The notes under the pieces were generated by a model, which worked only from the letters and a program-made list of their open reading frames with translations, was not told where the DNA came from and searched no databases. Source: a virus (lineage: Duplodnaviria; Caudoviricetes). From it: a DNA stretch of 64,000 nt. The first letter of the stretch is position 1. Each line of letters begins with the position of its first letter. The stretch lies in IMG/VR virus record IMGVR_UViG_3300005739_000025; one strand, given 5' to 3'. A program made the position numbers and the translations under genes. Shown piece by piece: positions 17,446 to 44,340 of this stretch.

Positions 17446-18009
17446 ATGAATTTAAATGTAGAAATGCCTAAAACATTTCCAAACGTATTAACATCAGAGC
17501 TGTTTAAAAGAGTTAAGGATGATGTGGAATCTAATGGATGGATTTTTAAAAATAGATCTTACGATGGGGATACAATTTTAAGCTGGACACAAAAAAGAAA
17601 TGATAGATCTATTATTTTAGAGGCAGGAAATTACATAAAAGGTGTTATAGAGAAGTATCTAGATGATAAATTTACTCTAATGCGAATACATTTTAACGGT
17701 CAAACCTACGGTCAAAACGGTAAAAGTCATCAAGATTATTATATTCCAGGCATAGTTACCTTCATACTTTATGTAAACGAAGACTGGGAGTATGAATGGG
17801 GAGGTGAAACATATGTAATAGATGATAAAAACAAATTAACTATAAATCCAGTAATTCCCAATTCAGGCATTCTCATTCCCGCTTTTTGGTATCATTGGGG
17901 AAACGCCCCTACAGTTACAAATAAATTAAGAATAACAATAGCCTTTTCGTATTGTTTAGAGGAAATATTTGACACAGTTAAAGAAAATCTAGAAATATTA
18001 ATAGATTAA
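17446..18009 (+). CDS. 2OG-Fe(II) oxygenase (prolyl-hydroxylase-like)
   Basis: HQD, W.YEWGGET, HWG..P, RITIAF. Confidence 0.85.
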   Translation: MNLNVEMPKTFPNVLTSELFKRVKDDVESNGWIFKNRSYDGDTILSWTQKRNDRSIILEAGNYIKGVIEKYLDDKFTLMRIHFNGQTYGQNGKSHQDYYIPGIVTFILYVNEDWEYEWGGETYVIDDKNKLTINPVIPNSGILIPAFWYHWGNAPTVTNKLRITIAFSYCLEEIFDTVKENLEILID

Positions 18010-18056
18010 ACTTGCAATATTCTAACATTCCTTTATAAATATATGTACATTCAAAA

Positions 18057-18131
18057 ATGAAACTACATACATCAATTATGGATTCAGGTCGACCAAGTCT
18101 CTTTGGGAAATGGACAACCTGTATCTTTTAA
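18057..18131 (+). CDS. Leader peptide 1, MKLHTSIMDSGRPSLFGKWTTCIF
   Basis: 24 codons; its stop abuts the antiterminator 5' strand; codons match the array-1 anticodons. Confidence 0.7.
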   Translation: MKLHTSIMDSGRPSLFGKWTTCIF

Positions 18132-18159
18132 GCGGGTATATAGTAGAACTTTTTGTACC

Positions 18160-18191
18160 CGCTACCTAATTAAATAGGTAGCGTTTTTTTT
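18160..18191 (+). terminator. Intrinsic terminator
   Basis: CGCTACCTA-attaaa-TAGGTAGCG followed by T8. Confidence 0.85.
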
Positions 18192-18290
18192 AATCAATAA
18201 AGGCTTTATAGGAGGTGAGCCTGAATCACTGAAACAGCCACCGTGAAACCGTGGGTTCGATAAACGAAGAGGTGTATCGTTCTTTTTTTT

Positions 18291-18361
18291 GCGGGTATAT
18301 CATAGTGGTAATGAGTCTGCTTGCCAAGCAGATTAGAGGAGTTCGATTCTCCTTACCCGCT
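18291..18361 (+). tRNA. trnG: tRNA-Gly(GCC)
   Basis: GCGGGTA/TACCCGC acceptor, TCTGC-TTGCCAA-GCAGA, TTCGA T-loop. Confidence 0.93.
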
Positions 18362-18417
18362 TTTTTACAGTCCCGGGGTAATCCCTCTTAACAATGGATC
18401 CCGGGTAAGATTTCAAT

Positions 18418-18488
18418 GCCTGGTTAGTTTAATGGTAAAACGGTTGATTTGTAATCATCTGACGTCAGTTCGATTCTGTCACTGGGCT
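18418..18488 (+). tRNA. trnT: tRNA-Thr(TGT)
   Basis: Cloverleaf with anticodon loop TTTGTAA. Confidence 0.88.
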
Positions 18489-18501
18489 CATTTTTTTTTA
18501 T

Positions 18502-18577
18502 TGCGGAGTCGACAAGGGGTTAAGTCAGAAGTCTCATAAGCTTCTATGCGCTGGTTCGAATCCAGCCTCCGCAACCA
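18502..18577 (+). tRNA. trnM: tRNA-Met(CAT), initiator-like body lacking the three G-C anticodon pairs
   Basis: TGCGGAG/CTCCGCA-ACCA, A11-U24, loop CTCATAA. Confidence 0.85.
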
Positions 18578-18582
18578 TTTTT

Positions 18583-18666
18583 ATGTCCGCTCACAAGTGG
18601 GATTGTAGACGGTCTCCAAAACCGTTGTCGTTTGACTAAGGGGTTCGATTCCTCACGGACATGCCA
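18583..18666 (+). tRNA. trnW: tRNA-Trp(CCA) with extended variable arm
   Basis: ATGTCCG/CGGACAT-G-CCA, ACGGT-CTCCAAA-ACCGT, ~13-nt variable region. Confidence 0.75.
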
Positions 18667-18670
18667 TTTC

Positions 18671-18741
18671 GCGGTGGTAGTATAATAGTAGTACAGGAGT
18701 CTTCCAAACTTCGGGCCTCGGAGCGTAACCGTGTCACCGCA
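18671..18741 (+). tRNA. trnG: tRNA-Gly(TCC), non-canonical T-loop
   Basis: GCGGTGG/TCACCGC, loop CTTCCAA, T-loop AGCGTAA. Confidence 0.8.
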
Positions 18742-18775
18742 TTTGATTTTACGTTATAATATACTATAATAAATT

Positions 18776-19540
18776 ATGTTTTTTAAGAAAACCAAAACAC
18801 CCTATATAAAGTTTATTCCCATAGTCGAGGGTTTAAAAGAATTTATCCCCATAATACCAGCTAAAAGTTATTTACCTGATTGGTGGGAAAAAATAAACAT
18901 AAACGAAAATGTTAAATTTGCTAATAAACGTCCTGTTTCTACTGGTACAGTTAGAAAATGTCCAGGTATAATGGATTTTTTAAAAACAGGCTATATTATA
19001 CCCGCCTGGACTGATATATATATTACAGTTAAAGGTAGAGAAAGTATAGAATTTGAACTATCCGATAAAAGATTTAATGCTCGTATACACAGCAATGATC
19101 AATTTTTAAACTATATACCTGAACATTCAAAAACAGAGTATCTTTGGACTTTGAAGTTACAGAGTCCTTGGTTTATACAAACCCCACCAGGTTATAGTGT
19201 TATGTATATAAACCCGTATTATCACTTTAACAAATATTATGATATTGCCCCTGGTATACAAGATACAGATATATATCATGATTCCAACCAATTTTTGTTA
19301 ATTAAAAAAGAAGGAGAATTTTTAATAGAACGAGGTTCTCCACTTAGCATAGTTTTTCCTTTTAAACGAGAAGACTATGACTTTACGATGGAAGATTATG
19401 ATTTTTTTAAAACAGAGAAATATAAATCTAGAGAAGAATTTGTATCGTTTTCAAAATTTTCATCAATGCTTTCTTATAAAAAAGAACAACAAAAACAAAG
19501 AAAATGTCCTTTTTTATGGAATCATAGCTCAATCGGTTAG
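18776..19540 (+). CDS. Conserved phage protein (DUF6065-like), paralogue of 22109-22840; stop codon lies inside tRNA-Asp
   Basis: RKCPGIMDFLKTGYIIPAWTD, W.IQTPPGYS, PGIQDTD. Confidence 0.7.
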   Translation: MFFKKTKTPYIKFIPIVEGLKEFIPIIPAKSYLPDWWEKININENVKFANKRPVSTGTVRKCPGIMDFLKTGYIIPAWTDIYITVKGRESIEFELSDKRFNARIHSNDQFLNYIPEHSKTEYLWTLKLQSPWFIQTPPGYSVMYINPYYHFNKYYDIAPGIQDTDIYHDSNQFLLIKKEGEFLIERGSPLSIVFPFKREDYDFTMEDYDFFKTEKYKSREEFVSFSKFSSMLSYKKEQQKQRKCPFLWNHSSIG

Positions 19541-19591
19541 AGCACTGCCCTGTCACGGCAGGGGTTGCGAGTTCGAGTCTCGTTGATTCCG
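19518..19591 (+). tRNA. trnD: tRNA-Asp(GTC)
   Basis: GGAATCA/TGATTCC, loop CTGTCAC. Confidence 0.93.
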
Positions 19592-19596
19592 TGAAT

Positions 19597-19671
19597 GTCT
19601 GTGTAGTGTAATAGAGAGCACGAGAAGCTACGAACTTTTTAGTGTGGGTGCAAATCCTGCCATAGACACCA
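19597..19671 (+). tRNA. trnR: tRNA-Arg(ACG), non-canonical T-loop
   Basis: GTCTGTG/CATAGAC-ACCA, loop CTACGAA, T-loop TGCAAAT. Confidence 0.85.
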
Positions 19672-19678
19672 TTTTAAC

Positions 19679-19755
19679 GCTCTGGAAGCTAAAGTAGTCG
19701 AAGCGTTAGTCTGCAAAACTTTCATTAGTCGGTGCGAGTCCGACCCAGAGCTCCA
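19679..19755 (+). tRNA. trnC: tRNA-Cys(GCA), non-canonical T-loop
   Basis: GCTCTGG/CCAGAGC-TCCA, loop CTGCAAA (weak anticodon stem), T-loop TGCGAGT. Confidence 0.8.
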
Positions 19756-19762
19756 TTTTATA

Positions 19763-20023
19763 GATCTGGCCGTAGCAAATGATATCCAGATCAGGGTGTG
19801 TTCCCTTTGCCTGTTAGTGTGTTGGGGGTGCTCATCTGGGCTAGTCGAGCTAGGCTACATAAAGCTATGACGCTATGCATTAGTACAACACAGGCTATTG
19901 GACGGAAGTATCTGGCTCCAGGCCAGACTCCGTTAAGGAAGGGACAAAATCCGGAACAAAACCCTTCAGCACTAATAATTTAGTAGACCCGTTATGCCTC
20001 TTAGCAATGCACACTTAACGGGT
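19763..20023 (+). ncRNA. Unassigned ~260-nt structured RNA inside the tRNA array
   Basis: GC-rich, no credible ORF, at least six stems (GATCTGG/CCAGATC, GTGTTG/CAACAC, TCTGGC/GCCAGA, GAAGGG/CCCTTC, ACCCGTTA/TAACGGGT). Confidence 0.55.
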
Positions 20024-20028
20024 ATTTT

Positions 20029-20099
20029 CCCTCCTTAGTATAGTAGCATTACAATCGGTTGATAACCGATAGAACTAGGGGCAGTACCTAGAGGAGGGA
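20029..20099 (+). tRNA. trnI: tRNA-Ile(GAT), non-canonical T-loop
   Basis: CCCTCCT/AGGAGGG, ATCGG-TTGATAA-CCGAT, T-loop GGCAGTA. Confidence 0.85.
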
Positions 20100-20135
20100 C
20101 TATTGACTTTTCAAAAGGCGTGATATAATTACTTT

Positions 20136-20351
20136 ATGTACGAGACCGATCTCACATATAAGAGAAAAAAATATAAAATTAAAATAAAAACCATTTTCGA
20201 GGTAGGGGATGGTAAAGAACATTATGATTTAGAAGTCTCAACAAATAAAAGAATGTCTGGTAATGAATTTTTAGCGCTAAGAAAATATCTAGAAGATGAG
20301 GGTTATATAGAACAAGCAAGAATTTATAATGAGGAACTTTATGCCGATTAA
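20136..20351 (+). CDS. Hypothetical protein
   Basis: 71-aa ORF with a sigma70-like promoter upstream. Confidence 0.55.
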   Translation: MYETDLTYKRKKYKIKIKTIFEVGDGKEHYDLEVSTNKRMSGNEFLALRKYLEDEGYIEQARIYNEELYAD

Positions 20352-20497
20352 AGATTGGACAAAAATGACTAAAGATGAACTCTTATATACCTTTGAATGG
20401 GCACAAAAAATAGGTTTTCACTTTTTAGCTAAAGAAGTGTATAATCAATTAAAAGTTAAGGGTCTCATTAAAGAGGATAAGAGCGAAAAATAATTTA

Positions 20498-20569
20498 CGG
20501 GCACGAGGAAGATAGTAATCCGCCAGTTTTGGGAACTGGAAATACTCGGGGCGGAACCGAGGTGCCCGA
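20498..20569 (+). tRNA. trnP: tRNA-Pro(TGG), non-canonical T-loop
   Basis: CGGGCAC/GTGCCCG, CCAGT-TTTGGGA-ACTGG, T-loop GGCGGAA. Confidence 0.85.
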
Positions 20570-20572
20570 TTT

Positions 20573-20647
20573 CGCTGCTTAGCTGAGATAGATTAGCACG
20601 AGTCTGAAGAACTTGATAGGTTGGAGCGTTACCAACAGCAGCGGCCA
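20573..20647 (+). tRNA. trnF: tRNA-Phe(GAA), non-canonical T-loop
   Basis: CGCTGCT/AGCAGCG-G-CCA, loop CTGAAGA, T-loop AGCGTTA. Confidence 0.82.
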
Positions 20648-20650
20648 TTT

Positions 20651-20726
20651 TTGGAGCAACCACAAACCCACTGGTATTAGGCGTTGAGAGTAATTGGAAA
20701 GCGCTCTCGAGTAAGTCCTGCTCCAA
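20651..20726 (+). ncRNA. Unassigned tRNA-sized structured element A
   Basis: TTGGAGCA/TGCTCCAA closing stem, internal GAGAG/CTCTC, flanked by T-tracts; resembles 21552-21617. Confidence 0.45.
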
Positions 20727-20736
20727 TTTTTTAAAC

Positions 20737-20808
20737 GTGGCTCGTGGTGTAATAGAAGCATTAGAGATTGTGACTCTCTCGGTGAGGGGGCAGAACCCTT
20801 CGAGCCAA
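20737..20808 (+). tRNA. trnH: tRNA-His(GTG), non-canonical T-loop
   Basis: G-1, TGGCTCG/CGAGCCA, AGAGA-TTGTGAC-TCTCT, T-loop GGCAGAA. Confidence 0.85.
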
Positions 20809-20848
20809 TTTAGTAGAAAAAAACATTTTTTATTATATAATTCTTTTT

Positions 20849-21550
20849 ATGCGCATTTTATCTATTGATATGGATTTTATCACAACTAGATATGGGCAAT
20901 ATATTATAAACAATTATGATGAGGTTTATAATAAAAATGCCAATATGCATTGGGAAAATATTAGACTACAGTATGGTGACATACACGAGGATTTTAAACC
21001 TGATATTCAAAATTTAGTTTATATATTCGAAGTTTTTTCTAATGCGATTTTGAATAGTAAAAAAGTAGTTTTTAGCAATTATCATGACTGTATTCTAAAT
21101 GAATTAGATTTTAATAAAACTCATTCAATTATTAATATAGATCATCATCACGATTTGTTTTATTTTAACTCACAAAAAGAAAAAGTAGAAAGATATAGTG
21201 TCGTAAGTGATGCTGATTGGGTATGGTATCTATTAAAAAATAATTATTTGATGTCCTATACCTGGATTCACAACCCAACATCTTCTATGCCTAAAGATTC
21301 ATTTTATAGTGACGATAAAAGGATGATTTGTAAGTTTTTATTAAAAGGAGATTACACCTTTAAAAGCTATGATTTCGATTTAGTTTTTGTATGTTTAAGT
21401 CCTATTTATATAAGTCCTATACACTGGCATTATTTTGAACTGCTTAAAGTAATATATAAAAATACTCTAAAAAAAGATTTAATAATAAACAATAAAAGAT
21501 ACGAAATCGATTTTCAAATTGGTTTAAATAATTCTGGGTCATTCTTGTAA
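20849..21550 (+). CDS. UPF0489/arginase-like metalloprotein
   Basis: LSIDMDF, NIDHHHDL, DLVFVCLSP.Y motifs. Confidence 0.65.
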   Translation: MRILSIDMDFITTRYGQYIINNYDEVYNKNANMHWENIRLQYGDIHEDFKPDIQNLVYIFEVFSNAILNSKKVVFSNYHDCILNELDFNKTHSIINIDHHHDLFYFNSQKEKVERYSVVSDADWVWYLLKNNYLMSYTWIHNPTSSMPKDSFYSDDKRMICKFLLKGDYTFKSYDFDLVFVCLSPIYISPIHWHYFELLKVIYKNTLKKDLIINNKRYEIDFQIGLNNSGSFL

Positions 21551-21551
21551 A

Positions 21552-21617
21552 TGGAGCCGACATTCCAATGCTATTGGTTGAGATTAACCCTGGAGCGTCG
21601 CGGGTAAACTTGCTCCA
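21552..21617 (+). ncRNA. Unassigned structured element B (related to A)
   Basis: TGGAGC/GCTCCA closing stem; CGACATTCCA/TGGAGCGTCG; 3' CGRGTAAR segment shared with A. Confidence 0.45.
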
Positions 21618-21624
21618 CTTTTTT

Positions 21625-21708
21625 AGACACACTGACAGAAATGTCTTGGGCGCATGTGCCGCTACAGACTCGTAAGAGTTCATTGAAAGTTATAGCACAA
21701 GTGTGTCT
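21625..21708 (+). ncRNA. Unassigned multi-hairpin RNA
   Basis: 9-bp AGACACACT/AGTGTGTCT stem enclosing GACA-GAAA-TGTC and GACTC-GTAA-GAGTT GNRA hairpins. Confidence 0.55.
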
Positions 21709-21712
21709 TTTC

Positions 21713-21784
21713 GGGGAATTAGTTAAGTGGCTATAACTCCTGATTTGCATTCAGGTGTCACCGGTTCGACTCCGGTATTCTCCA
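21713..21784 (+). tRNA. trnA: tRNA-Ala(TGC)
   Basis: G3-U70 pair, CCTGA-TTTGCAT-TCAGG. Confidence 0.93.
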
Positions 21785-21791
21785 TACTTTA

Positions 21792-21873
21792 GCTCTAGTG
21801 GTGAAATTGGCAGACACGACAGACTTAGGATCTGTTGCTTTACGGCATGGGGGTTCGAGTCCCTCCTGGAGCA
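21792..21873 (+). tRNA. trnL: tRNA-Leu(TAG)
   Basis: Type II cloverleaf, loop CTTAGGA. Confidence 0.93.
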
Positions 21874-21879
21874 TATTTT

Positions 21880-21966
21880 GGAAGTGTGGCCGAGCGGTTT
21901 AAGGCAGAAGTTTACTAAACTTCCGAGGTATCCATTCCTCCGTGGGTTCGAATCCCACTGCTTCCA
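21880..21966 (+). tRNA. trnS: tRNA-Ser(ACT), unusual A34 anticodon
   Basis: Ser-type body with long variable arm; GAAGT-TTACTAA-ACTTC. Confidence 0.85.
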
Positions 21967-21982
21967 TATTAATAATTTTTAT

Positions 21983-22074
21983 GGGCAGATGGCTGAGTCC
22001 GGTCTAAGGCGTCCGACTTGAAATCGGAAGTGGGGGAAACCTCACCGTGGGTTCGAATCCTACTCTGCCCGCCA
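21983..22074 (+). tRNA. trnS: tRNA-Ser(TGA)
   Basis: Type II cloverleaf, loop CTTGAAA, G73-CCA. Confidence 0.95.
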
Positions 22075-22108
22075 TTGAATTTTAAAAATTATAAGTTAAA
22101 ATAATATA

Positions 22109-22840
22109 ATGTTTAATTTGTTTAAAAAGGAAATAGAATTTTTTCCAACAACTTTAGAAATAGATAAAGTAGCTCCTATTGTTCCAGCTAGCAAATTTCT
22201 CCCAAAATGGTGGACGGATATTGATCCAAATAAACATGTAAATTTAGTAAATAATGTACCTGTTATAAGAGGCAATATTAAAAAATGTCCAGGTGTATCA
22301 GATTTTTTAACTAAGGGTTTTATATTACCCGCCTGGACAGATTTTTATTTTTGCTATGAAAATGGTAAAATGAAAAAAATCTCATCGTTACAATCCCACG
22401 GAATAATACACCAACCAGACACATCATTTATTGATTTTTTACCAGATAATATAAAATTTAAAAAACCCATTTCATATAAATTATTAACCCCCTGGCTTAT
22501 CAAAACCCCTCCCGGCTATAGCAGTTTAATTTTAAACCCAACATTTCATTTTAACGATAATTTCGACACTATGCCCGGTATACTCGATACCGACATTTTT
22601 CATACCCTATCTATTGAAATTCTAGTTAAAGAATCAAAAACTTTTACTATACCTTTTAACACTCCATTATGTATAATAGTTCCTTTTAAAAGAAATAAAT
22701 TTAAATATAAAATTAATTTAAATAAAGCAGTAATGGAGAAATTGTCTTCTCTTTCAAATCTTATATCTTTTGCAAAATTTTCTTCTAGCGCTATGTATAA
22801 TTATGTAAGAAGATCAAAATGCCCTTTTAATAATAAATAA
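22109..22840 (+). CDS. Conserved phage protein (DUF6065-like), paralogue of 18776-19540
   Basis: KKCPGVSDFLTKGFILPAWTD, W.IKTPPGYS, PGILDTD, C-terminal KCPF. Confidence 0.7.
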   Translation: MFNLFKKEIEFFPTTLEIDKVAPIVPASKFLPKWWTDIDPNKHVNLVNNVPVIRGNIKKCPGVSDFLTKGFILPAWTDFYFCYENGKMKKISSLQSHGIIHQPDTSFIDFLPDNIKFKKPISYKLLTPWLIKTPPGYSSLILNPTFHFNDNFDTMPGILDTDIFHTLSIEILVKESKTFTIPFNTPLCIIVPFKRNKFKYKINLNKAVMEKLSSLSNLISFAKFSSSAMYNYVRRSKCPFNNK

Positions 22841-22844
22841 TTTT

Positions 22845-23102
22845 ATGAATTTTGAAATTTTAATAAATGACTTATTAAAAAAGAATTATAAAATTAATGA
22901 GCAGTTAGCTAAAGGTAAAACTTTAGAAGATATATCTAAAGAGACAGAAACATCAAAAGAAATATTAAATAAAGAACTTAAAAAAGGAATAGAAATAGAA
23001 AAAGAACATACACCATCAGAAAAAAAAGCTAAAACCATAGCTAAAGATCATCTTATTGAAAATCCTAAATATTATACTAAATTAAAGAAAGTAGGATTAT
23101 AG
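22845..23102 (+). CDS. DUF5661-like small protein
   Basis: ELKKGIEIEKEH...IAKDHL.E.PKYYTKL. Confidence 0.65.
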   Translation: MNFEILINDLLKKNYKINEQLAKGKTLEDISKETETSKEILNKELKKGIEIEKEHTPSEKKAKTIAKDHLIENPKYYTKLKKVGL

Positions 23103-23176
23103 ACCCTGTAGTGTAATGCAAAGCACGTTATGCATATAGCATAAAGATAGAGGTTAGAATCCTTTCAGGGTCGCCA
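23102..23176 (+). pseudogene. tRNA-like gene with collapsed anticodon loop (no reliable anticodon)
   Basis: GACCCTG/CAGGGTC-G-CCA; anticodon arm TTATGC-ATATA-GCATAA, A at position 33; T-loop TTAGAAT. Confidence 0.7.
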
Positions 23177-23902
23177 TTAATTGTTTTTAGTCGCAAAATT
23201 ATTCCACCTTTCTGTATTACTTAATTCCTGCTTGGAGTTTAACTCTACATGTCCATCAAAATAAGCCACTACGGCTTTATTATTATACCTATAATCTACC
23301 TCCCCGACAGCTCCTCTAGTTTCAGGACCCGCCACATCAAAACACCCCCTATGTTCTGCTCCTTCCATTTTACTAATCGCAAATACAACTAGTTTAGAAG
23401 GTTCATTAACCTGAGTGATATTAGTTACTACTGATTTATTGCCTCTATCTGGTGAAACAGGAGTACCGTACTTACCCCCAACATAAGTACCATTCATACC
23501 AAATGTTGTAAAAACTGTTACTAGATAAGAATACATACTATCATCTGGAGGAGCAGCTTTCTGATTGTTAACCATTAAGATGTTAATACTATAATCTATA
23601 TAAGGCGCAAGTCTCCATGGCCATCTTTTTGCAGCATGGGACATGACTGGCTTACCTTTATCGTCTAATACTTTACCTGGTTTAGGGTCCATAGCTTTAA
23701 TTAATCGCCCTCCATTATCAGCTGCGTAAGCATGAAACCCTGCCATTAATGCTCTACCTGCATGAACCTCTCTTCCCTTTTCAGCAGATTTTATATAACT
23801 AGAATAACCTGAAAAACCAATAGCAGCTAAAATGGTTATAACTGCTATAGATACTAATAGTTCAATTAACGTAAAAGCCCTTGCATATCTTAAAAAGTTC
23901 AT
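23177..23902 (-). CDS. Prepilin-type N-terminal cleavage/methylation protein with H-X9-DG-type C-terminus
   Basis: AFTLIELLVSIAVITILAAI; YRYNNKAVVAYFDGHVE. Confidence 0.9.
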   Translation of the reverse strand: MNFLRYARAFTLIELLVSIAVITILAAIGFSGYSSYIKSAEKGREVHAGRALMAGFHAYAADNGGRLIKAMDPKPGKVLDDKGKPVMSHAAKRWPWRLAPYIDYSINILMVNNQKAAPPDDSMYSYLVTVFTTFGMNGTYVGGKYGTPVSPDRGNKSVVTNITQVNEPSKLVVFAISKMEGAEHRGCFDVAGPETRGAVGEVDYRYNNKAVVAYFDGHVELNSKQELSNTERWNNFATKNN

Positions 23903-44048: not shown

Positions 44049-44102
44049 ATGACACTTTACATACAAAATAAACAATATAGAATAGAACAGCTCCTGGGCT
44101 GA
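44049..44102 (+). CDS. Leader peptide 2, MTLYIQNKQYRIEQLLG
   Basis: 17 codons; an 11-codon run matches the array-2 anticodons. Confidence 0.7.
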   Translation: MTLYIQNKQYRIEQLLG

Positions 44103-44123
44103 GTTCTAACGTTGTTTACTTGG

Positions 44124-44156
44124 AACCCCGGCCTGTATAACAAGCCGGGGTTTTTT
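44124..44156 (+). terminator. Intrinsic terminator
   Basis: AACCCCGGC...GCCGGGGTT followed by a T-tract. Confidence 0.9.
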
Positions 44157-44172
44157 ATTGATCTTTGACAAT

Positions 44173-44340
44173 TTATAATATGAAAGAGAGGAGGTATTTA
44201 ATAGCCCAAGAAAACTTTCTTTTACTAAATCTCTTTTTACGAGGTTTACTTAAAGACTGTTCTCTGCTATTAATATAGCCAATCCCCCCATACATGCTAT
44301 AAACCAGACCAAGACCATTTGTGTAGTGGTGTGTGTTCAT
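44173..44340 (-). CDS. 55-aa basic protein, antisense to the array-2 leader region
   Basis: MNTHHYTNGLG...PRKKRFSKRKF; AATAAATA upstream on the minus strand. Confidence 0.45.
   Translation of the reverse strand: MNTHHYTNGLGLVYSMYGGIGYINSREQSLSKPRKKRFSKRKFSWAIKYLLSFIL

Follow-up and report, generated by a model that had tools for sequence, protein, structure and literature searches.

A predicted ribosome-mediated attenuator with a tRNA-matched leader upstream of a tRNA array in a distant T4-like phage

Results

The phage and its first tRNA array

We examined a 64-kb stretch of viral DNA (hereafter the window) with a G+C content of 33.6%, whose portal protein was approximately 32% identical to gp20 of T4-like cyanophages and which also encodes tail fibres and a helicase. 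A gene next to the locus studied here lies on a 244-kb contig, and the source is a T4-like phage, large and distantly related, of freshwater metagenomic origin. No near relative was found in the phage GenBank set, and sequence L001 was identical to the window and added no information. It was noted that, of 45 genes examined in this phage, only 7 have a Shine-Dalgarno-like site and that (T)ATAAATA lies 3-15 nt 5' of many (late) gene starts, together implying that late mRNAs are nearly leaderless and that the host relies little on Shine-Dalgarno sites.

tRNA array 1 (18291-22074, plus strand) comprises 16 tRNAs with interspersed ORFs and was delineated with ARAGORN, Rfam, relaxed ARAGORN and cloverleaf folding: Gly-GCC, Thr-TGT, Met-CAT, Trp-CCA, Gly-TCC, Asp-GTC, Arg-ACG, Cys-GCA, Ile-GAT, Pro-TGG, Phe-GAA, His-GTG, Ala-TGC, Leu-TAG, Ser-ACT and Ser-TGA. 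Default ARAGORN called ten of these, Rfam added Gly-TCC, Cys-GCA and Ile-GAT (42-45 bits), relaxed ARAGORN added Pro-TGG and Phe-GAA, and His-GTG (20737-20811) was supported solely by a clean cloverleaf fold with G-1. All 16 tRNAs that a first-pass annotation had placed here were present, though six are non-canonical. These six (Gly-TCC, Cys, Ile-GAT, Pro, Phe and His, within 18671-18741, 19679-19752, 20029-20099, 20498-20647 and 20737-20811) carry T-loops such as GGCAGTA or AGCGTAA instead of TTCGAAT and D-loops without GG, with the cloverleaf fold kept. The same class was also encountered in relatives, and most of its members are missed by standard finders.

Several further features of the array were recorded. 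The anticodon arm of tRNA-Ser-ACT (A34; 21879-21967) was found in 75 IMG/VR stretches (L050-L124), approximately 60 of which match over the full length of the tRNA with about 75-95% identity, so that this tRNA is not a one-off. At one homologous tRNA position (window 18502-18577, L144 3647-3722, L148 2442-2516) the anticodon is mostly CAT and is CAC (Val) in L148 and L100, which looks like an anticodon switch inside one tRNA lineage. A conserved non-coding stretch of approximately 270 nt separates tRNA-Cys from tRNA-Ile (window 19753-20028, L095 5360-5830, L144 1616-1959); its terminal hairpin fell just below the threshold of the Rfam abiF RNA motif (35.1 versus 37 bits), with the same near-match in L144 and L147. 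Two paralogous ORFs lie at 18776-19540 and 22109-22840 (phrog_7084, function unknown), with distant relatives in cyanophages and haloarchaeal viruses.

A leader ORF and two overlapping hairpins precede array 1

Upstream of the array, a T4-type late-promoter-like motif (TATAAATA; 18034-18041, plus strand) was observed 15 nt 5' of the ATG of a short ORF, leader 1 (18057-18131, plus strand), which has 24 sense codons and a TAA stop. The motif is common before the genes of this phage, and homologues of the leader carry (T/C)ATAAATA or CATAATTA at the equivalent position. The stop codon runs directly into hairpin H1 (18131-18163, plus strand), the predicted antiterminator, in which region 2 pairs with region 3 (18131-18138 with 18156-18163, extendable to 10 bp). 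The 5' arm of H1 begins at the final base of the stop codon; its GCGGG/CCCGC core is conserved, and its inner helix varies in sequence among clades with the pairing always kept.

Hairpin H2 pairs regions 3 and 4 over 9 bp (18160-18168 with 18175-18183) and is followed by a T8 tract (18184-18191), the whole (18160-18191, plus strand) being a predicted intrinsic terminator whose full 9-bp stem was returned on masking the first 14 nt 3' of the stop. The strand common to H1 and H2 measures 4 nt in the window (18160-18163). In a terminator scan of 17900-23300, H2 with its T8 was the sole strong intrinsic-terminator-like site, and the tract ends 100 nt 5' of the first tRNA (start 18291). A late promoter, a 24-codon ORF and an 8-bp antiterminator directly at its stop, overlapping a 9-bp terminator with T8, had been proposed in the first-pass annotation, and each of these elements was present. 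The anatomy is a matter of observation; termination at H2 is inferred.

One alternative is that the ORF is not translated, the region being the structured 5' leader of a tRNA precursor with a constitutive terminator or processing hairpin, and that any codon match is chance or a by-product of base composition. The lack of a Shine-Dalgarno site at leader 1 speaks for this, as does the identity, in the window, of the H1 arms with the acceptor stem of the adjacent tRNA-Gly. We rejected the argument from the missing site because the genes of this phage mostly lack one anyway (7/45) and the same ATAAATA motif precedes its late gene starts by 3-15 nt; the start context of leader 1 is that of the phage late genes. 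An origin of H1 as a decayed tRNA-Gly copy was likewise rejected because the tRNA-Gly of relatives starts GCGGATG and H1 stays GCGGGTA. Translation of the leader nevertheless remains inferred, with indirect support only, from conservation of frame, start and stop.

The codons of leader 1 sample the array

Under standard wobble, 19 of 22 leader-1 codons are read by array-1 tRNAs, and 15 of the 16 tRNAs are sampled, tRNA-Ala being the one never sampled by leader 1 of the window. These counts reproduce those of the first-pass annotation, which had called for a match probability from the codon frequencies of the phage; this has now been computed. Array-1 tRNAs read 39% of the phage codons under standard wobble, and 22 random codons would on average have 8.9 covered and sample 6.4 tRNAs. 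Against the codon usage of the window, the probability of at least 19 covered codons was 1.3e-5 and that of at least 15 distinct tRNAs was 5e-7. Even when 19 codons were drawn solely from those of array 1 (set 1), at least 15 distinct tRNAs were reached with P = 3.7e-4, which indicates that leader 1 is an even sample of the array and not merely biased in composition. Among 38,132 stop-free 22-codon windows (six frames, 64 kb), the leader-1 locus ranked first on both measures, the runner-up independent locus sampling 13 distinct tRNAs. This low probability and the position of the locus as the global maximum of the window count against an untranslated ORF with an accidental codon match.

A second leader precedes a second array

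A sister element, comprising leader 2, an antiterminator and a terminator (44049-44158, plus strand), was found 5' of a second array. Leader 2 (44049-44102) has 17 codons and a TGA stop (44100-44102), and contains a run of 11 codons read by Tyr, Ile-TAT, Gln, Asn, Lys, Arg-TCT and Glu tRNAs. This run covers all seven downstream tRNA species and was the best of 63,150 windows; its chance was approximately 9e-6, with a further factor of 0.1 for covering all seven tRNAs. Within the window, leader 1 has 20 set-1 codons and 1 set-2 codon, compared to 4 and 11 in leader 2 (Fisher exact test; p = 2.3e-5). That a second leader matches the other array is a further point against the untranslated reading.

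Array 2 itself was noted to hold Tyr, Gln, Ile-TAT, Met, Lys, Asn, Arg-TCT and Glu tRNAs. ATA and AGA codons are kept in all copies of leader 2 (the window and four relatives; L144:17529-17582, L146:411-461, L147:9047-9094 and L148:13355-13408). A mini-ORF lies directly 3' of terminator 2 (44180-44278), and its first codons sample array-2 tRNAs plus Leu-TAA; position 44177 was the only 11-codon window matching 8 distinct tRNAs.

Leader codons follow array content in relatives

Searches with neighbouring proteins yielded no relatives of the locus, and relatives found through the portal protein had no array at this position, which places the array in a variable region. Relatives were obtained by searching IMG/VR with the tRNA-Ser(ACT) anticodon arm and then with the conserved stretch between the terminator and the first tRNA (element X, described below). 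Eight homologues of leader 1 were recovered (L095:4876-4950, L100:775-849, L125:1143-1214, L131:2980-3051, L132:640-714 and L158:161-235, and on the minus strand L127:346-420 and L170:1079-1150), with 49-78% nucleotide identity to other clades; in the comparison between clades alone, the values were 49-64%. All eight keep the ATG, an A-rich second codon, the frame and a length of 23-24 codons, and their stop is fused to the GCGG(G/T)TA hairpin, L158 having TAG instead of TAA. The only clear-cut gap is one of 3 nt in three sequences (the L125 group); MAFFT placed compensating 1-nt gaps between the window leader and the others, and any claim of indels in threes beyond the L125-group gap rests on manual alignment. 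It was also noted that the +2 frame is likewise stop-free in all nine leader-1 homologues, an observation that favours the untranslated reading. As an observation apart from the leaders, L095 encodes a tmRNA (676-1137; Rfam, 136.7 bits) approximately 4 kb upstream of its leader 1.

The relatives with leader 1 have an array nearly the same as array 1 and a separate array 2 in each phage. Two other phages have a single 36-codon leader (L126:241-351, minus strand, and L141:13045-13155) 5' of one array of approximately 27 tRNAs that holds both sets. With the start codon and the second codon omitted, the nine leader-1 sequences of two-array phages have 183 set-1 and 5 set-2 codons out of 195, the five leader-2 sequences have 20 and 51 out of 72, and the two single-array leaders have 40 and 20 out of 68; in the genes of the phage, set-2 codons make up 35%. 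The homologues are related, so pooled codon counts overstate independence. The two single-array leaders sample 21 anticodons each within 35 codons (null mean 14.9; P = 5e-4). Absence of leader/array co-variation in relatives had been named beforehand as a result that would refute the attenuator reading, and the set-2 fractions (5/195, 51/72 and 20/68) favour it instead; that the codon class follows the layout of the arrays also argues against the untranslated ORF.

Finer features of the codon choice were then considered. In the four-fold boxes of leader 1, NNA makes up 59% compared to 37% expected, and NNT approximately 9% compared to approximately 43%; NNA is cognate to the U34 tRNAs of the phage. 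Strict codon matches drop from 81% upstream to 62% over the final five codons, and this lower value fits the attenuator model since a ribosome stalled there still covers region 2. Some details do not follow the arrays: leaders of the L126 type leave Ala and Asp unsampled though both tRNAs are present, and L100 retains a Met codon though its array-1 tRNA became Val-CAC. An apparent co-variation for Asp, based on single-array phages that at first seemed to lack tRNA-Asp as their leaders lack Asp codons, was dropped because a non-canonical tRNA-Asp-GTC was detected at approximately L150:2300-2371 (reverse strand). The co-variation for Phe was inconsistent, L095 and L125 having Phe codons and no detected Phe tRNA, which may be non-canonical and missed.

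Element X and a GC-rich family of longer leaders

Between the attenuator and the first tRNA lies element X (18201-18274, plus strand), a conserved four-helix, cloverleaf-like RNA of approximately 75 nt and unknown function, whose helices P1 and P3 covary and whose junctions are invariant (CCACCGTGAANCCGTGGGT ... AGAGGTG). It always occupies this position, in AT-rich and GC-rich contigs alike, and was also identified in L095, L100, L125, L126, L141, L214 and L152-L271. A metagenome scan found it in at least 120 contigs, and among the element X matches listed most were GC-rich (0.5-0.63) soil and peat contigs. No matching family was found for it in Rfam. Element X could serve in processive antitermination or as a signal for processing.

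In the GC-rich family, a leader of 55-58 codons is open in 78 of 82 loci and encodes 74 different peptides (examples are L157:2260-2430 and, on the minus strand, L201:8126-8293). These leaders end directly after the region-2 core, with 53 TAA, 20 TGA and 4 TAG stops at an almost fixed position, and are followed by a canonical terminator, a spacer, element X, a boxA-like sequence and the tRNA array. The arrays have at least 27 tRNA calls, some by relaxed ARAGORN, and the boxA-like sequence was recorded as TGTTCTTTGTTGA. A stop codon that switches type at a fixed position across the 78 loci is hard to reconcile with an ORF that is not translated, and with the codon statistics, the second leader and the co-variation given above we consider that explanation highly unlikely.

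A different possibility is that the ORF makes a small functional peptide, that the terminator merely ends its transcript and that the resemblance to the tRNA repertoire is incidental. The leader-1 peptide does have some conserved positions (M-K/N-H-T near the start and W-T-T/P near the end), which this would explain. Against it, peptide identity between clades is low and the codon class is kept, the same logic recurs in the unrelated leader 2 and in the 36- and 55-58-codon leaders, and the stop codon is always fused to region 2. Of the explanations weighed here we find this one the least credible.

RNA folding and the predicted switch

We assessed whether the hairpins could act as alternatives. 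When H1 forms in full in the window, H2 is reduced to 5 bp lying 4 nt from the U tract (-19.7 kcal/mol), and the thermodynamic optimum is a trimmed H1 beside an 8-bp H2 (-20.8 kcal/mol). The optimum lets the two hairpins coexist, so that a switch in the window would have to be kinetic. The stronger conclusion, that coexistence means no switch, was not retained except as a caveat, as it holds only for the optimum of the window, by 1.1 kcal/mol, and the relatives share 5-7 nt. In these relatives CCCGC or more is common to H1 and H2, with 1.6-6.3 kcal/mol between the two states.

The layout of stop codon, antiterminator and terminator was encountered with unrelated helix sequences in the eight leader-1 homologues, the four leader-2 homologues, L126, L141, the GC-rich L178 and L162. 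In those lineages, the RNA present before region 4 emerges was predicted to fold as 2:3, and masking to +14 gave 3:4 followed by a U run. In each lineage folded, region 2 either begins at the stop codon or lies across it; in leader 2, the L126/L141 type, L214 and the GC-rich family it falls in the last codons or directly 3' of the stop. For L214 and L235 the masked fold was the terminator, but the 2:3 pairing was not returned by the prefix fold, being read from the sequence in L214 and being the free-RNA optimum in L235. The free RNA was strongly antiterminated in the L126 type, L178 and L235 (e.g., -27.6 versus -14.2). Comparison of L126 with L141 showed one G-U pair of helix 2:3 replaced by U-A, with both strands changed.

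No region-1 protector helix (1:2) was seen in the folds, which suggests that untranslated RNA would read through. On this folding model, the device would be ON by default and turned OFF by smooth translation.

These folds also bear on the nature of the output. A translation-coupled switch might act on something other than intrinsic termination: the position of the ribosome could govern processing of the precursor (with RNase P or RNase E entering at element X or at the first tRNA), accessibility to Rho, or how element X folds. It was noted that AT-rich relatives have only a short U tract after H2 (UUU or UUUU, then A), that the structured element X always follows the switch, and that GC-rich members have the boxA-like sequence after it, all of which would suit such an output. 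The canonical GC-rich stems followed by 5-8 U in the window, leader 2, the L126 type, L214 and the GC-rich family point to termination, and we regard a non-termination output as unlikely.

Discussion

The attenuator reading and its mechanism

From the arrangement, codon statistics, conservation and co-variation observed here, and in the absence of expression data, the locus having been found in no RNA-seq run, we consider it likely that a ribosome-mediated (leader-peptide) transcription attenuator gates late transcription into array 1. The phage would then probably transcribe the array-1 tRNAs only if ribosomes slow on their codons, which expression data have yet to address.

In the mechanism that we propose, transcripts would begin a few bases 3' of TATAAATA, and the 24-codon leader would be translated while RNA polymerase advances. 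If all codons were decoded fast, the ribosome at the TAA would cover the 5' arm of H1, H2 would form, and the T8 tract would end transcription 100 nt before the first tRNA. If any one of the approximately 15 sampled aminoacyl-tRNAs were scarce, the ribosome would stall earlier and H1 would form first, taking the base of H2, so that the polymerase would continue across element X and enter the array. The leader would in effect be a one-codon-per-tRNA test track of decoding capacity whose output is more of those very tRNAs. The coupling of leader translation to termination is inferred, as is the physiological trigger, which may be tRNA depletion, defence nucleases (there are no data for the anticodon nucleases named in the first-pass annotation) or plain feedback. 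The weak sensitivity expected from one codon per tRNA, compared with runs of his or phe codons, counts against the model.

It was also noted that sigma-70-like promoters are present within array 1, so that the attenuator may govern late expression only; much of the array may also be expressed independently from these internal promoters.

A broader proposal, which we offer tentatively and do not favour on present evidence, is that the attenuator forms the opening stage of an ancient and widespread phage tRNA-array module. In such a module, a pan-codon leader would measure decoding capacity and element X, accompanied by boxA in GC-rich members, would make the polymerase resist pseudo-terminators formed by tRNAs plus U runs, or would direct processing, the whole being an inducible counter to tRNA-depleting host defences.

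The purpose and regulation of phage tRNAs are debated; among the proposals are that they match codon usage, make up for host shut-off or allow anticodon nucleases to be evaded. If the attenuator reading is true, phages measure decoding capacity in real time, attenuation is extended from one or a few amino acids to approximately 15-20 tRNAs sensed at once, and the question of what phage tRNAs are for becomes directly testable, as both the exchange of leader codons and the depletion of individual tRNAs are feasible. The module spans AT-rich freshwater phages to GC-rich soil contigs and so appears to be common, and it may offer synthetic biology a compact natural sensor of tRNA supply.

Comparison with known systems

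Other systems share parts of this logic. T-box riboswitches likewise occupy the 5' leaders of translation-related genes and respond to tRNA status through a terminator/antiterminator switch; a T-box itself recognizes a single uncharged tRNA by direct binding, without a ribosome. No match to the T-box family (RF00230) was found in 17900-23300, whether the cut-off was the gathering score or an E value of up to 10, and no specifier architecture was seen. The tRNA cluster of phage T4 resembles array 1 in its T4-like genome and in having tRNAs interspersed with small ORFs and stable RNAs. Early and middle promoters drive that cluster, and we know of no leader-peptide control described for it. In the full-text literature, we did not find leader-peptide control of tRNA genes described.

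The closest parallels are the trpL, hisL, leuL, pheL, thrL, ilvL and pheST attenuators, which likewise have a short leader with regulatory codons (translated in those cases), antiterminator and terminator hairpins that exclude each other, and a U tract. In amino-acid operons the position of the ribosome decides the fold; the thr and ilv attenuators sense more than one amino acid, and pheST is an example of attenuation at a gene of the translation machinery. Compared with these attenuators, the phage element would regulate tRNAs and not enzymes, and its leader samples approximately 15 different tRNAs once each, where those leaders repeat one or a few codons. It is also phage-encoded, stands behind a late-promoter-like motif, and has a nearly leaderless start without a Shine-Dalgarno site. 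Unlike trp, it has no region-1 helix and its predicted default is read-through, although such a helix is not required in all attenuators. The mechanism of attenuation is a known one, and what is new is tRNA genes as its target, reached through a leader that inventories many codons.
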